Shown piece by piece: positions 45,127 through 51,438 of a stretch of 64,000 bases of DNA (position 1 is its first letter; each line of letters starts with the position of its first letter). The stretch spans positions 17,844-81,843 of the forward strand of contig JAFUTN010000034.1 of assembly GCA_017484225.1 (NCBI GenBank), read 5' to 3'. The notes beneath the pieces are model-generated. The model had not been told where the DNA came from and made no database searches. It worked only from the letters and a program-made list of their open reading frames with translations. Position numbers and translations under genes: made by a program. The DNA comes from Alphaproteobacteria bacterium (GTDB taxonomy: Bacteria > Pseudomonadota > Alphaproteobacteria > RF32 > CAG-239).

Positions 45127-48100
45127 CTATTTTGTGTTTGATTTGTCCTTTATTTTGCTTCTGTCCAGAGATGTTTTGCGAACCTCTTTAAGTGTTTTTT
45201 TGCCGAGGCCTCGCAAAGCAGTAATGGTTTTTCCGGCTGATTTTGGTTTGGATGTTTTTTTCTTTTCTTCGGCCTGCTTAACCGGTTCCGGAGTCTTGAC
45301 TTCAACTTTCGGCTCAGCCTGCTTAGCCGGTTCCGGAGTCTTGACTTCAACTTTCGGCTCGGCCTGCTTAACAGGTTCCGGAGTCTTGACTTCAACTTTC
45401 GGCTCGGCTTGCTTAGCCGGTTCCGGAGTCTTGACTTCAGCTTTCGGCTCGGCTTGTTTAGCCGGTTCCGGAGCCTTGACTTCAACTTTCGGCTCGGCCT
45501 GCTTAGCCGGTTCCGGAGTCTTGACTTCAACTTTCGGCTCAGTTTGTTTAACCGGTTCCGGAGCTTTTTTCGTCATACCCTCAATAATCAGCGGATGCTC
45601 TTTTTCCGCATCATTAATTACGAGTTTGGCTCCTTGCGGCAGAGCAATATTTTCATCCATCTTGCAATTTATGCACTTTAGTTCTTTCAAGCATTTTGAG
45701 GTGTCAATATTTTCCGGAACAGTGCAATCTTTTATGTGGGTAATCGGGGGCAATTTTACACCATCACCGATTTCGCAGTTAATGAAAGCAACTTTCTCCA
45801 TACGGCTTAAATCCATTCCTTTCGGGATGCTGACATTTTCTAAAACCGCATAGTCAGGAAGTTCCGTTTTGGCGGAAATTTTGCAATTTTTGCAACACAC
45901 ATTTTTTACCGCAAGCAAATTTTTATCACTTAGGTCATAGTCTTGCAGCATAATCATGTCGGAGGATTTGCTTAAAGATTCAAAGCTGATTTTTTCAAAA
46001 GCAATATCTTCTTTTTTGCAAACGGCAGCAGTAAGCTGACGAGCGGGTGCTGCCTCCTGAAAAGCGGCTTTGGAGAATCCTTCACTGTATTTTTCTAACA
46101 CGGTTTTATCATATCCGGAATCGCGCCATTCTTTCATGGCAGCTTTTTTATTTTCCCACTCGTCTTGCTTAAATGCTGAGTTGGTGAATTTTTCTCCGTT
46201 AGAGAACATCACGCCATATCCGACATCTTTACATCCTGCTTTATAATACATTTTATTGGCAAGTTCATATCCCGGTGAAACCACGTAAATATTCTGCTCG
46301 GCAAAATATAATGCGGTGTAGCCGTTATTTGTTCCCATTAATATTTTTGCACCTTCTTGTTTGGCTTCTTCTTGGGCATTGAAATAACCTTCTATTGAAC
46401 GTCCTGTATCAAGATATGTGGTTTTGAGCCAAGAATCGTCCGGAGTCAAAAGCAGGTATGTTTCTTTTGGCATATCCACATCCGCTAAAATTTTTTCAAC
46501 CTGTTCTTTCGGTGTTTTCGGTTTTGGTCTTATGCGGGTTTTTTCCAATTCAATGGCTTCAGTTTCGTGTTCCGGTTTGTCGGCACGGACGGAAGCTTTT
46601 ATTTGTTGCTGTGCTTTGGTGTTGTCTTTGCTCAAATTGACAGTTATATTATCTTTGCTTTCTGTTGGTTGTAATAATGCTTCAGCAACAGATTTACCAA
46701 ATTTCGGATTAGTCAGTGCAGCTTTAACAGTTTCTTTAATTAAAGTTTTATATAATTTATTATCAATCAGCTTATTTTTGTGCAAAGCGGCAAAACAGGT
46801 TTTTAATCCTTCGGCCATACCATTCGGGTTTTCCGGCGTATTCATGTGTTTCATTACGTCTGATATTGCGAGCAAACCGCGCTGAACATCTGATACATAG
46901 TTAACATCTTTTCCCGCTTTTTCAAACTTTTTAATTTTTTCCAGCATAAACTCACTTAAATTACTGTCTTTACCTTTTTGTTGTTCTTTTACAACCGCAA
47001 TTAAAAAGCGGCCGAGCAATTTCTTTTCATCTTTGGTTGGAGCAGCCCGCTGAGCGCCGGTATCAAAAATTCCGATTTCTACAACCGGTTTTCCATCCTT
47101 ATCTTGAGTTATATGAAAGTTCTGCTGTTTGCTGTGGCGGTCAATATCCCAAGCCTTACCGCTCATCAGATTAGTCATTTCAATCATGGTATAAGCCAAG
47201 GCCATATCATGCTTTTGCTGAGGGGTAAAATCCGGGGAATCAATGCTTTTTCCCGGCGCCATTTCCATTATTTTGTAGTTGGAAAATTTAGAATCGCCGT
47301 ATCGTTCCCATGTTGCCACATGCGGAACATAGGATACTCCGTTCACTTCAACACTTTCTATTGCACCGTAATTATTGCAGGCATTGACGTATTGTTTAGC
47401 GCCTTCATTGATGTCAACTTCTATTTTAGCGTTTTTGGCTGACCTGTCTACAATGCTTTTTAAAATTTCGTATTTTTTATCTACACCGCAAAGTTCGGTA
47501 GTTGCTCCGTTGATTTTTCTAAACTCATTGGCTGATTTTGTTGCCGCTCTGTCATGCATTACTTGAATAACAACATCTTTTGAACCGCCGTTTTTCTCAT
47601 CTTCCGTTTCCACTAAAATTGTTTTATTGAAAGAGCCGCCGCCGATAAACTTTTTAACCTTTTTAATGCGGTTAAATTCTTTATCCGGCATGGCTTCGCG
47701 CAAATCTTTCCAGATTTCCCACTGTTCCGGTTCATTGGCTTTGTCTTTTAAACGTCCCAAGCTGTCGCGAATATCTTGCGGAAGTTGATCAACATACGAA
47801 AGTGTTTGTGCCAATTTTACCCATGCGGTTCCCTGTTTTTCACAAAACATGGTTAACCCGTCACCAACATTCATATTTTCATCAGCTTGTCCCGGTTCTC
47901 GTCCGGCTAAAACACCTCCGAGCAGCAATGTCGGTTGTTCTTCCTGATGACATACGGCAGTGGCAATTTTTTTCACTTCTTGCAACAGTTCGGCATCTTC
48001 TTTACGGTTCCCGAATATTTTATCTGATACATAAGAAATTTGGGTTTCTAATTTCTTTTCTTCCGGAATTCTTTCCACGGCATGATCAAGCATACGGTGC

Positions 48101-51100: not shown

Positions 51101-51438
51101 AACCCCTTATTAACGCACAATATTGCTTTTCCGTCTTTAGTATAAGTTTTCCGCAAATGAAAAGCATTCAATTCATCAGAATCGGAAACGATAATATCAA
51201 AATTTTTCTTGAAAAAATCAGGTTGAGAATATTCGCCGCCTTTTTGCTTGAACAGATTTACACATATAGACTCAACATAATCGTTCACTAACTTAGCTGT
51301 TTCGCAGTCTCGCGGTAAAACATGATTTCTTTCCCAAAAATCTATGTTTTCGGATTCAGAATATCCGACTTTGGCATTATTTTCATTTCCGGTATATTTT
51401 TCCATAAGAAATTCCTTTATATTAAAACACACGTTCAT
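45127..51438 (-). CDS. giant multidomain protein: M48-like zinc protease, ABC1/UbiB-like kinase, tandem PEPAKQAEPKVEVKT repeats, basic C-terminal tail
   Basis: 2103-aa uninterrupted ORF; the likely start is ATG 51405 (AAGGA 7 nt upstream). The N-terminal region has AFVLAHELGHY...EVQADRLG (HExxH plus a downstream E/D as in M48 peptidases). Residues ~1180-1500 have WVKLAQTLSY...LGRLKD...FIGGGSFNKT...VVIQVMHD...KIMEMAPG...DRHSKQQNFHI...IGIFDTG, matching ABC1/ADCK/UbiB atypical kinase blocks. A Cys-rich repetitive region (CKNCKI..., FINCEI..., CINCKM) follows, then 6.5 x 15-aa repeats and a Lys-rich tail. Confidence 0.85.
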   Translation of the reverse strand: MNVCFNIKEFLMEKYTGNENNAKVGYSESENIDFWERNHVLPRDCETAKLVNDYVESICVNLFKQKGGEYSQPDFFKKNFDIIVSDSDELNAFHLRKTYTKDGKAILCVNKGLFKNVANEAQLAFVLAHELGHYTVEETREDDKYGVHVSGHEHEVQADRLGFNSMVEGGYNPEEAEAFFHKIDYMEPDTVSAYKSANNSHGSTSTRIANIKDYKSDFERKGVVMPTYTGKDRFDDFVKKFEAVESNDRYISYLEERIRQEHNVASSSELSPQQRRDFCEKIITDEPDVLNTGQRGGEFARILCGNTKSLSKEDAVQINRILEKCYKLDTENESLYKACALKLPPRDENGNLWLEPRGSVKERMQFLEQLMTDEKKWEELKNPYSAKDVFSKIREQHPLHDYVEMPKFSLENPQKGNTVPWAGLAASLNVRNKDDMQLIMSVLGVHADYFEQKYGNNGGYITNEKDKMYCDAKGVIISTDPQEVAQLYQQCEETVRSLPIEEQKRIMVLDFHDQLVIMSQNEHGSPEFEQAKQRASEIYIQSKDAFVELDNSRDILGTHRGVAIHLSTEDLDRPTGQLFAKEINEHSPTYIQFASNEKYLRTFSALYTEVIVDTELKIREQTHPSDYLTRDDCVKNAMEFVASENRDLYNDFSSSGDFSAEQRKTVRKDVIRNMAPVIFNTYDKLFENSPGKESAALMHAFVTQTLMNDNVGADGNLAYAEAFRKNRDLKDAQNNADLLDNLKQMAPKEEQRGYIGNTITYTKMMYDYEVMRTINNGADIDIPQVLPYIPGNVSPALADKMTQYVVKHDMFAAREGETAEQTYDRCKELYIKMAEKSAFSSQDDTQYKIEKQLLSHLQKLPPERQAREVYQLLNTQADHALADSQIDNSFLSEQSDYEKATIMKERLKEMGGSILRYDNNKIIAENMYADYVINKFGPDDKSAEYRENMNFALDELSENVAITSRSRICSRIAKGIMAQEELAYDIKEIAGKSVENNKVREEAIRSFNVINTFLQRNPEYSTMAMDFLISNGSVADCKKFSEQIIRGVQENRKHLPEEWEESINNKLSDNGVTAFTARDIRNVPLPPDLLTEQLAGLHQSYTNADFKTRAVIMHRMLDHAVERIPEEKKLETQISYVSDKIFGNRKEDAELLQEVKKIATAVCHQEEQPTLLLGGVLAGREPGQADENMNVGDGLTMFCEKQGTAWVKLAQTLSYVDQLPQDIRDSLGRLKDKANEPEQWEIWKDLREAMPDKEFNRIKKVKKFIGGGSFNKTILVETEDEKNGGSKDVVIQVMHDRAATKSANEFRKINGATTELCGVDKKYEILKSIVDRSAKNAKIEVDINEGAKQYVNACNNYGAIESVEVNGVSYVPHVATWERYGDSKFSNYKIMEMAPGKSIDSPDFTPQQKHDMALAYTMIEMTNLMSGKAWDIDRHSKQQNFHITQDKDGKPVVEIGIFDTGAQRAAPTKDEKKLLGRFLIAVVKEQQKGKDSNLSEFMLEKIKKFEKAGKDVNYVSDVQRGLLAISDVMKHMNTPENPNGMAEGLKTCFAALHKNKLIDNKLYKTLIKETVKAALTNPKFGKSVAEALLQPTESKDNITVNLSKDNTKAQQQIKASVRADKPEHETEAIELEKTRIRPKPKTPKEQVEKILADVDMPKETYLLLTPDDSWLKTTYLDTGRSIEGYFNAQEEAKQEGAKILMGTNNGYTALYFAEQNIYVVSPGYELANKMYYKAGCKDVGYGVMFSNGEKFTNSAFKQDEWENKKAAMKEWRDSGYDKTVLEKYSEGFSKAAFQEAAPARQLTAAVCKKEDIAFEKISFESLSKSSDMIMLQDYDLSDKNLLAVKNVCCKNCKISAKTELPDYAVLENVSIPKGMDLSRMEKVAFINCEIGDGVKLPPITHIKDCTVPENIDTSKCLKELKCINCKMDENIALPQGAKLVINDAEKEHPLIIEGMTKKAPEPVKQTEPKVEVKTPEPAKQAEPKVEVKAPEPAKQAEPKAEVKTPEPAKQAEPKVEVKTPEPVKQAEPKVEVKTPEPAKQAEPKVEVKTPEPVKQAEEKKKTSKPKSAGKTITALRGLGKKTLKEVRKTSLDRSKIKDKSNTK
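45271..45566. repeat. 45-bp tandem repeat array, 6.5 units, in-frame within the giant CDS
   Basis: Units start at 45271, 45316, 45361, 45406, 45451, 45496 and 45541 (partial). The plus-strand consensus is GGCCTGCTTAGCCGGTTCCGGAGTCTTGACTTCAACTTTCGGCTC, with a few substitutions per unit. Confidence 0.95.

Follow-up and report, generated by a model that had tools for sequence, protein, structure and literature searches.

The 64,000-nucleotide window analysed here (positions 17,844 to 81,843 of the forward strand of contig JAFUTN010000034.1, assembly GCA_017484225.1) comes from an uncultured Alphaproteobacteria bacterium of the gut or rumen and encodes, on its minus strand, a giant protein of 237 kDa. 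Comparison with relatives shows this protein to be one allele of a lineage-restricted, fast-diversifying and putatively bifunctional enzyme, in which an M48 metalloprotease, a helical solenoid and a UbiB-like, protein-kinase-like domain follow each other on a single chain. Judged by residue conservation, both active sites (M48 and UbiB-like) are apparently intact. The original prediction, made from the DNA letters, had described one open reading frame (ORF) with an M48-like protease, a motif-less stretch, an ABC1/UbiB-like kinase, cysteine-containing repeats, tandem repeats and a basic tail, and had proposed an effector or toxin. The translation confirms the single ORF and all quoted motifs in that order. 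We regard it as quite possible, though short of probable, that the giant protein is an effector or toxin directed at a partner or a host. The comparisons strengthened this plausible reading but left it unproven.

Residue numbers throughout follow the 2,103 codons of the uninterrupted minus-strand ORF (51438 to 45127), not the protein counted from Met12. The main domains are:
50764..51321, minus strand: M48 zinc-metallopeptidase domain of the BepA/3c37 type, aa ~40-225 (Pfam, PDB profile, Foldseek).
51040-51054, 50974-50976 and 50836-50838, minus strand: zinc-site residues H129-E130-x-x-H133, E155 and H201, respectively.
48172..50763, minus strand: predicted all-alpha solenoid of ~860 aa (aa 226-1089) joining the protease to the kinase-like domain (AlphaFold2 model).
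46759..48171, minus strand: UbiB-like protein-kinase-like domain, aa 1090-1560, with a helical KxGQ extension and then a bilobed core (AlphaFold2 model, Foldseek).

The M48 assignment is solid, as profile, zinc motif and fold all agree. The protease reaches 49.1 bits with Pfam PF01435, whose cut-off is 20.3, the PDB entry 3c37 is matched at E 6e-13 with the protein and at E 2e-23 with the wider family profile, and BepA is matched at E ~1e-14 in a PDB sequence search. These matches bear out a protease first recognised by its motifs (LAHELGHY at 127-134, EVQADRLG at 155-162 and GGYNPEEAEAFF at 169-180). Foldseek aligned the model with 3c37 over ~243 columns (root-mean-square deviation ~5 Å, TM-score 0.59-0.61 normalised to 3c37) and matched BepA (6ait) too. 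Foldseek TM-scores are moderate here and below, and the alignments behind the structure predictions are shallow (13 and 30 sequences). H129, E130, H133, E155 and H201 do not vary among 18 close homologues or among 32 diverse ones, the latter at ~17% identity. The domain shares with soluble M48 proteases of the BepA/YfgC type (6ait, 3c37) the HExxH motif, the downstream Glu ligand and a His equivalent to that of the THP motif, as well as the order of a protease followed by helical repeats, BepA being an M48 domain plus tetratricopeptide repeats (TPR). BepA is periplasmic, however, whereas the giant protein has no signal peptide. Its helical region spans ~860 aa against the ~200-aa TPR domain of BepA, and its protease is fused to an ATP-using domain.

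The original prediction found no motif in about 900 residues after the protease. Pfam likewise has no match in aa 226-1089. In the AlphaFold2 model of aa 12-1100 (mean predicted local distance difference test, pLDDT, 81) the part following the protease is almost wholly helical, and its weak Foldseek matches are karyopherin/HEAT-like. On the strength of this model, aa 226-1089 are read as a probable alpha-solenoid.

The kinase-like domain resembles UbiB/ABC1 remotely but truly. Its AlphaFold2 model (pLDDT 79, predicted TM-score 0.73) has a bilobed kinase fold after a helical extension. The top five Foldseek matches in the PDB are to COQ8A (5i35, 7udp) and MSMEG_1954 (7cz2, 7cyr, 7cy2), at E 6e-7 to 5e-5 and target-normalised TM-scores of 0.44-0.54, and generic kinases rank lower (E >1e-3). 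The UbiB profile TIGR01982 matches weakly across the KxGQ region (E 0.0036, 15.9 bits against a cut-off of 487), and Pfam ABC1 is collinear but sub-threshold in 3 of 5 distant family members (~18 bits against 22.9). The ABC1/UbiB relationship first proposed is upheld by the fold, the KxGQ motif and these faint profile matches, but not by direct sequence matches. Pfam ABC1 (PF03109) found neither the giant protein nor 12 close relatives even at E<=10, and the kinase-like region had no significant sequence match in the PDB. The motifs that had suggested the relationship lie at 1208-1215 (KLAQTLSY), 1227-1232 (LGRLKD), 1264-1273 (FIGGGSFNKT), 1289-1296 (VVIQVMHD, the beta3 strand), 1391-1396 (MEMAPG), 1433-1443 (DRHSKQQNFHI) and 1457-1461 (IFDTG). 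Only ~8 residues separate DTG from the next helix in the model, so that there is no activation loop.

The domain is best described as a new sister family of UbiB, to which it is structurally closest. Like UbiB/ABC1/ADCK proteins (COQ8A/ADCK3, E. coli UbiB, MSMEG_1954 and plant ABC1K), it combines a bilobed fold and an N-terminal helical KxGQ extension with a Ser after the nucleotide loop, an alphaC Glu, a catalytic Asp-x-His and a DFG-type Asp. We did not file it as UbiB/ABC1 because profile scores stay below threshold, the Ala triad and the beta3 Lys are replaced, and the membrane anchoring and quinone context of UbiB are missing. The giant protein contains no hydrophobic segment for anchoring of the UbiB type and, unlike UbiB proteins, has no transmembrane helices and is fused to a protease and a solenoid. 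Its relatives also come from a lineage that reportedly does not respire and hence has no quinones. COQ8, an ATPase activated by membranes, has its active site shut off from protein substrates by the KxGQ domain (10.1101/149823; PMC8956952). ABC1 kinases and an M48 protease share one lipid-droplet compartment, the plastoglobules/cyanoglobules (PMC8956952, PMC12223511). The two families of the giant protein are paired there as well, as ABC1K and PGM48, but as separate proteins in phototrophs that are tied to prenylquinone metabolism, and no sign of a lipid-droplet or quinone context was seen for the giant protein. By analogy, and as speculation, the M48-ABC1 fusion might be a Rosetta-stone hint of shared function.

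Residue conservation was counted over 141 aligned kinase-like domains of the family. The candidate catalytic residues are:
47806..47817, minus strand: KxGQ motif, K1208-L-A-Q1211, in the helices before beta1 (K and Q each 140/141).
47563..47565, minus strand: Q1292, at the beta3 position of the catalytic Lys in kinases including UbiB (model strand 197-206).
47419-47421, minus strand: alphaC Glu, E1340 (140/141).
47272..47274, minus strand: K1389 in beta5 (YKIMEMAPG), candidate relocated catalytic Lys (alignment covariation).
47056..47148, minus strand: catalytic loop D1431-x-D1433-R-H1435-x-x-Q1438 and DTG with D1459 (conservation).

The KxGQ motif is described as invariant in and unique to UbiB/ABC1, and its Gln holds the water proposed as nucleophile of the family's ATPase activity (10.1101/149823; PMC8956952). 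In the catalytic loop, D1431, D1433 and H1435 are each found in 141/141 domains, the DFG-type D1459 in 140/141, and Q1438, collinear with the catalytic-loop Asn of the UbiB HxDxHPGN motif, in 135/141. The nucleotide loop is GGGS here (1266-1269) and G-[SA]-[AG]-S in the family, with G1266 in 140/141 and S1269 in 135/141 domains; it is not the Ala-rich AAAS of UbiB, with which it has only the Ser in common. In COQ8A, an Ala-to-Gly change in the nucleotide loop raises ATP-dependent activities (10.1101/149823; PMC8956952).

The original prediction had asked for the kinase catalytic residues to be checked, with good reason, as one of them is not intact. The beta3 Lys is lost, with Q1292 in its place, and seems to have been relocated to beta5. 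The beta3 column is variable across the family (S29 A27 K20 R14 Q13 G12). Of the 107 members without a basic beta3 residue, 102 have K or R at position 1389, and just one of the 34 members with K or R at beta3 has a basic residue there as well. Two residues before the gatekeeper-equivalent M1391, position 1389 presumably lies on the same face of the strand next to beta3. Because the basic residue swaps between beta3 and beta5, we infer from the alignment a relocated catalytic lysine, as in WNK kinases, with K1389 compensating for the loss at beta3 and the domain being an active enzyme.

The residue at beta3 also bears on a different explanation, by which the protein would be a largely non-catalytic surface or adhesion scaffold, with a pseudokinase for its kinase-like domain and repeats for attachment. 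Q1292 in place of the beta3 Lys and Q1438 where UbiB has Asn would fit a pseudokinase, and LRR-like (leucine-rich repeat) repeats, a Pro-rich spacer and the basic tail would fit attachment. Giant proteins in reduced-genome symbionts are often adhesins. However, conservation of D1431, D1433, H1435, D1459, E1340, K1208 and Q1211 reaches 99-100% where overall identity is ~17%, nearly every member has a basic residue at either beta3 or beta5, the M48 zinc ligands do not vary, and the C-terminal repeats are confined to the closest relatives. We consider a scaffold highly improbable.

The domain combination that the original prediction could not place is indeed unknown among characterised proteins, yet it is no single chimera, as a large family shares and conserves this layout. 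An exhaustive HMMER search with a profile of the kinase region found 702 representative clusters, counted at 50% identity, at E<=1e-3, with 251 of them at E<=1e-30. Most of these proteins have 1,500-2,800 aa, of which ~1,000-1,600 precede the kinase-like domain. Of the best 149 representatives of the 702, 94 carry an M48 domain with HExxH at their N-terminal end, most of the others being short or fragmentary. As the M48 domain recurs across the best representatives, the protease–solenoid–kinase order is a conserved architecture. A split of the ORF in other assemblies, a doubt raised at the outset, was not found: there are 17 clusters of full-length homologues, and the family forms the largest ORF cluster over 40 compared loci (median ORF 1,598 aa). 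The literature searched contained no description of such a protease–kinase fusion or of an effector with M48 and UbiB domains, and this large protease–UbiB fusion family is unstudied. Its members are currently filed only as "M48 family metalloprotease". The biochemistry of UbiB/ABC1 proteins, an ancient group with relevance to disease, is still poorly understood; a sister family with KxGQ kept, a Gly-rich loop, a moved Lys and a fused protease provides natural variants to probe the function of the fold.

Relatives were sought in contigs of species-representative genomes with an 8-sequence kinase alignment, giving at least the matches listed below; a single-protein query of the genome contigs confirmed no relative. 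The genome matches listed are gut and rumen metagenome-assembled genomes labelled Alphaproteobacteria, "Rickettsiales bacterium" or Candidatus Enterousia, along with a few mislabelled bins, including one closed chromosome, OZ246409.1, of 716,531 bp. Among these matches, RGIG4178 and RGIG6621 have two loci each. Of three contexts (L039-L041) examined for the taxonomy of distant homologues with signal peptides, only L041 was informative: its tolC-DUF2497-valS arrangement we take to be alphaproteobacterial. The GTDB order Rs-D84 includes Enterousia, with genomes <1 Mb that have no tricarboxylic acid cycle or respiratory chain and no amino-acid, nucleotide or lipid biosynthesis, and a partner-dependent life has been proposed (PMC12306168). 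A quinone-pathway role for the UbiB-like domain is unlikely because Rs-D84 has no respiratory chain. Rs-D84-type bacteria are widespread in animal guts. The giant gene, which takes up ~0.7% of a <1 Mb genome, is sometimes duplicated and has strain-specific cassettes, is a strong candidate for a mediator of partner dependence.

Rapid diversification of the family is visible within a species. On contig L042, from the same species, the gene for the homologue P0002 has the gene order of the window around it, and comparing the two sequences delimits one region:
48033..50531, minus strand: hypervariable cassette (blastn of the window against L042, sliding protein identity).

Within the cassette, blastn found two short matches (64% and 69%) and the rest cannot be aligned, whereas the flanking DNA is 98-99% identical. 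Seven flanking proteins (TsaD, a 364-aa hypothetical, ADP-dependent glucokinase, SspB, TrkH, a 333-aa hypothetical and MetRS) are 96-100% identical between the two contigs. Identity of the giant protein to P0002 is 78% over aa 1-100, falls to 30-56% over aa ~300-1135 and reaches 92-99% over aa 1400-1900. Residues 100-1300 of P0002 are 82-96% identical to P0005, an allele of another lineage, and P0002 is for this reason a recombinant mosaic. By these alignments, the exchanged cassette covers the protease, the solenoid and the N-lobe of the kinase-like domain.

Such polymorphism is difficult to reconcile with a cytoplasmic housekeeping role, in which the UbiB-like ATPase would sense membrane or lipid state and control the M48 protease, and the protein would serve protein or membrane quality control, replacing factors lost from a reduced genome. 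Much else would suit an ATP-gated protease of this kind. The giant protein has no signal peptide or transmembrane segment, its gene has its own promoter next to tmRNA, SspB and 6S RNA genes, and the family is widespread in the lineage, including, among the matches listed, the 716-kb genome. Both active sites are under strong purifying selection, BepA-type M48 proteases and UbiB proteins are ordinarily housekeeping, and the two families co-reside on plastoglobules/cyanoglobules. However, housekeeping proteins rarely differ by 45-70% over ~800 residues beside neighbours that are 96-100% identical. Mosaic alleles, integrases or transposases as neighbours in relatives, and C-terminal repeats that vary are also unusual for them, and some homologues of the giant protein carry Sec signal peptides. 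We therefore hold the housekeeping role to be unlikely.

Mobile genes adjoin the family in some relatives. One member lies beside an ISL3 transposase, a resolvase and an integrase fragment (L043), another beside an integrase, a Fic protein and a DNA methylase (L003), and DUF6119 also occurs in island-like contexts of relatives. These contexts, together with allelic replacement between strains, would also suit an intracellular defence against phages or mobile elements, in which sensing would fall to the solenoid, switching to the ATPase and the effector step to the protease, in loose analogy to large single-protein defence systems. The giant protein, with its enzymatic head and helical repeats, is itself one large polypeptide. 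PADLOC gave a weak CapP metallopeptidase match (E 8e-6) in the HExxH region, aa 87-149, as well as peptidase_U41 at 0.0055, and found nothing in three other family members. Membership in a known anti-phage system was rejected, as the match is limited to the generic HExxH. The family is moreover near-universal in the lineage among the matches listed rather than patchy, signal peptides of distant members ill suit an intracellular sensor, and the locus in the window is not a defence island. A defence role seems very unlikely to us.

For the effector or toxin reading, we suggest the following course of events. Synthesised in the cytoplasm and carrying no Sec signal, the protein would leave the cell by a route that reads its C-terminus, and would act on or in a partner or host cell. 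There, the solenoid may hold the target, while the UbiB-like module would hydrolyse ATP or transfer phosphate, possibly switched on at an anionic membrane by analogy with COQ8. The polybasic tail could help to bind such a membrane, and the M48 site would cut the target. Strong diversifying pressure on the recognition part would then account for the swapping of the protease–solenoid cassette among strains through recombination. A more specific proposal is that a new branch of the UbiB-like kinase superfamily, its ATP-binding Lys moved from beta3 to beta5, and a BepA-type protease, permanently joined by the giant solenoid, together form an ATP-gated, membrane-activated protease, which gut Alphaproteobacteria with reduced genomes would deliver as a weapon or effector into a partner cell and diversify by cassette recombination. 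This version is doubtful. If true, the fusion would also be a first piece of Rosetta-stone evidence for a substrate class common to UbiB-type ATPases and M48 proteases.

Several points weigh against an effector. The giant gene sits among housekeeping genes, between the 6S RNA and tmRNA genes, under its own promoter, and the wide rather than patchy presence of the family in the lineage, among the matches listed, would also be compatible with a core cellular function. All-versus-all clustering of ORFs found no neighbour gene conserved over the 40 loci, the best cluster other than the family itself reaching 7 loci. The 64-kb window encodes no secretion system, chaperone or known secretion signal save secY. 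"Kinase" may be the wrong word, because in the COQ8 paradigm the active site is closed to proteins. The pattern of Lys relocation could come from very few evolutionary events, and K1389 is a candidate placed by alignment and strand position rather than by model coordinates. The window genome itself is placed in Rs-D84 by inference from its relatives. The effector or toxin first proposed is indirectly favoured by hypervariability, the mosaic homologue, varying repeat copy numbers, genomes with two loci, mobile contexts, some homologues with Sec signals, basic C-termini, secreted ankyrin and LRR proteins encoded nearby and the partner-dependent life proposed for relatives, and disfavoured by housekeeping surroundings and a window without a secretion system.

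Evidence on export comes from the giant protein and its homologues. The maximum 19-residue Kyte-Doolittle mean in the giant protein is 0.72; because no stretch exceeds this value, there is no signal peptide or transmembrane segment, as had been stated for the N-terminus. Among full-length distant homologues, 11/129 have Sec signal peptides with AxA-type cleavage sites. An ATP-dependent domain outside the cytoplasm is mainly sensible inside another cell. Translocated multi-domain effectors and tandem-repeat proteins of host-associated Alphaproteobacteria, such as Ehrlichia TRP/Ank substrates of type I secretion and VirB/D4 substrates, offer a likeness: they too are large and acidic, without signal peptide, with tandem repeats, a basic C-terminal tail, strain variability and eukaryote-like repeat proteins in the genome. 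No sequence or fold relation to them was detected, however, and type I or type IV secretion genes were not seen in the available sequence.

The part of the giant protein beyond the kinase-like domain is more variable and consists of:
46114..46758, minus strand: conserved linker DKPxxETExIELEKTRIRPKP (aa 1620-1640) and a ~135-aa domain of unknown fold (aa 1641-1775), from the alignment.
45604..45918, minus strand: Cys-containing repeats, aa ~1841-1945, with a 36-37-aa period (alignment; repeats at 1849, 1885 and 1922).
45269..45563, minus strand: tandem array of a 45-bp unit encoding PEPAKQAEPKVEVKT, 6.6 copies (Tandem Repeats Finder, 92% matches).
45130..45264, minus strand: polybasic tail, aa 2059-2103, net charge +14 (sequence composition).

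The ~135-aa domain has a local hidden Markov model match in only 1/149 representatives and is thus limited to the closest subfamily. The region aa 1630-1965 had no significant match in the PDB, a lone ankyrin-like match standing at E 0.34. The Cys repeats reported originally were found again at their three positions, and by eye they look like degenerate BspA-type LRRs. The tandem array is likewise real, its 6.5 copies becoming 6.6 with a 45-bp period, and its copy number varies, with fewer or different copies in P0001 (97% identical), P0002 and P0003. Cys repeats, the PEPAKQ array and the long basic tail are confined to these closest relatives (P0001-P0003).

The charged end noted originally was recovered in the composition of the last 45 residues, unlike which every larger segment of the giant protein is acidic. 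Across the family, the charge of the final 50 aa has a median of +3, where -0.7 would be expected, and is at least +5 in 43/129 members. Basic C-termini would suit a C-terminal secretion signal as well as attachment to anionic membranes, and prove neither. Many family members (e.g. P0045-P0066) carry E-I-x-x-L...LG(I/V)xxK(Y/H)IK ~20-35 residues from the C-terminus. In the giant protein, LRGLGKKTLKEV may be a version of this motif, which could be a conserved recognition peptide. Two distant members with a beta3 Lys, P0159 (aa 2368-2452) and P0147 (aa 1843-1902), have C-terminal EF-hand motifs and Gly-rich hydrophobic segments, and two EF-hand proteins are encoded near a family member at 19382-22228 of L002. 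In different lineages, the variable C-terminus has seemingly picked up different modules of eukaryote-like type.

Eukaryote-like neighbours, as originally suspected, are encoded nearby in the form of secreted ankyrin/MORN and LRR proteins. The ankyrin/MORN protein (1,007 aa, 32974-35997, plus strand) has a Sec signal peptide, MLKSKFIFSAMLLMLYGTAKAQE, and is an exported repeat protein of eukaryote-like type. Five Cys-rich paralogues with signal peptides lie at 12965-13921, 14357-15280, 23578-24480 and 61917-62837 on the plus strand and at 38706-39569 on the minus strand. Pfam recognised BspA-type LRRs in 4/5 of them, the four that were scanned. All five share a C-terminal acidic tag of ~25 residues, (K/R)(L)RYTLPEADAATSDDNENMIEWIFE, which is absent from the giant protein and may be a lineage-specific C-terminal sorting or anchoring signal. 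Contig L042 contains, between its ADP-glucokinase and giant genes (4112-5647), an extra gene absent from the window for a 511-aa, Cys-rich protein with a signal peptide, whose C-terminus matches the shared tag of the LRR proteins of the window (tblastn). This looks like an insertion/deletion polymorphism right beside the hypervariable gene.

The start of the giant gene is almost certainly Met12, to judge from the DNA around it and from the homologues:
45127..51405, minus strand: coding sequence of the giant protein (ORF call; start from ribosome-binding site, promoter, homologue N-termini and length of the NCBI member).
51437..51465, minus strand: predicted sigma-70-like promoter, TTGTGA, 17-nt spacer, TACAAT (consensus match alone).

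With the start re-placed at the Met12 ATG (51405), the coding sequence is 45127-51405 and the protein has 2,092 aa. A ribosome-binding site, AAGGAA (51412-51417), sits 6 nt before this ATG, whereas the first ATG of the ORF overlaps the -10 hexamer of the TTGTGA-17-TACAAT promoter. MEKYTG is the N-terminus in all aligned homologues, and MBR1399594.1 (NCBI, "M48 family metalloprotease [Alphaproteobacteria bacterium]"), in the same 90%-identity cluster, has 2,092 aa, the length expected for a Met12 start. GC content of the gene (0.39-0.41) is the same as in its surroundings. An assembly chimera or foreign insertion was excluded by this uniform GC, by full-length homologues on many independent contigs and by P0002 sharing the synteny of the window.

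The surroundings of the giant gene are largely housekeeping. A 6S RNA gene (51531-51687, minus strand) lies ~125 nt upstream of the corrected Met12 start, and a two-piece (permuted) alphaproteobacterial tmRNA gene (44765-45102, minus strand) begins 25 nt past the stop codon. The tmRNA tag sequence is ANDNFAPVAVAA. The tmRNA gene is adjoined by sspB (44288-44740, minus strand), the adaptor for ssrA-tagged proteins. Further housekeeping genes in the window are secY, adk, polA, a class A penicillin-binding protein, dnaA-dnaN-recF, ftsK, fabD/fabG, dnaJ, metG, trkH, tsaD and dnaB. As dnaA, dnaN and recF are clustered (17846-21676, plus strand), the replication-origin region is probably within the window, over most of which the cumulative GC skew climbs.

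Metabolic genes of the window include an ADP-dependent glucokinase/phosphofructokinase (51758-53155, minus strand; Pfam ADP_PFK_GK, E 2e-75), an enzyme type believed to be mostly archaeal, and a bifunctional AdhE (24599-27280, plus strand). Together, the two fit a fermentative anaerobe. Noted along with these genes, a cluster of sequences at least 90% identical has 18 members, on contigs from several sources. Two conserved hypotheticals, of 364 aa (53166-54260, minus strand) and 333 aa (41631-42632, plus strand), have no Pfam match and are 97-98% identical in L042; the 364-aa protein opens with a His/Pro-rich stretch, PEPPKPEHPHPHPQPHPE.

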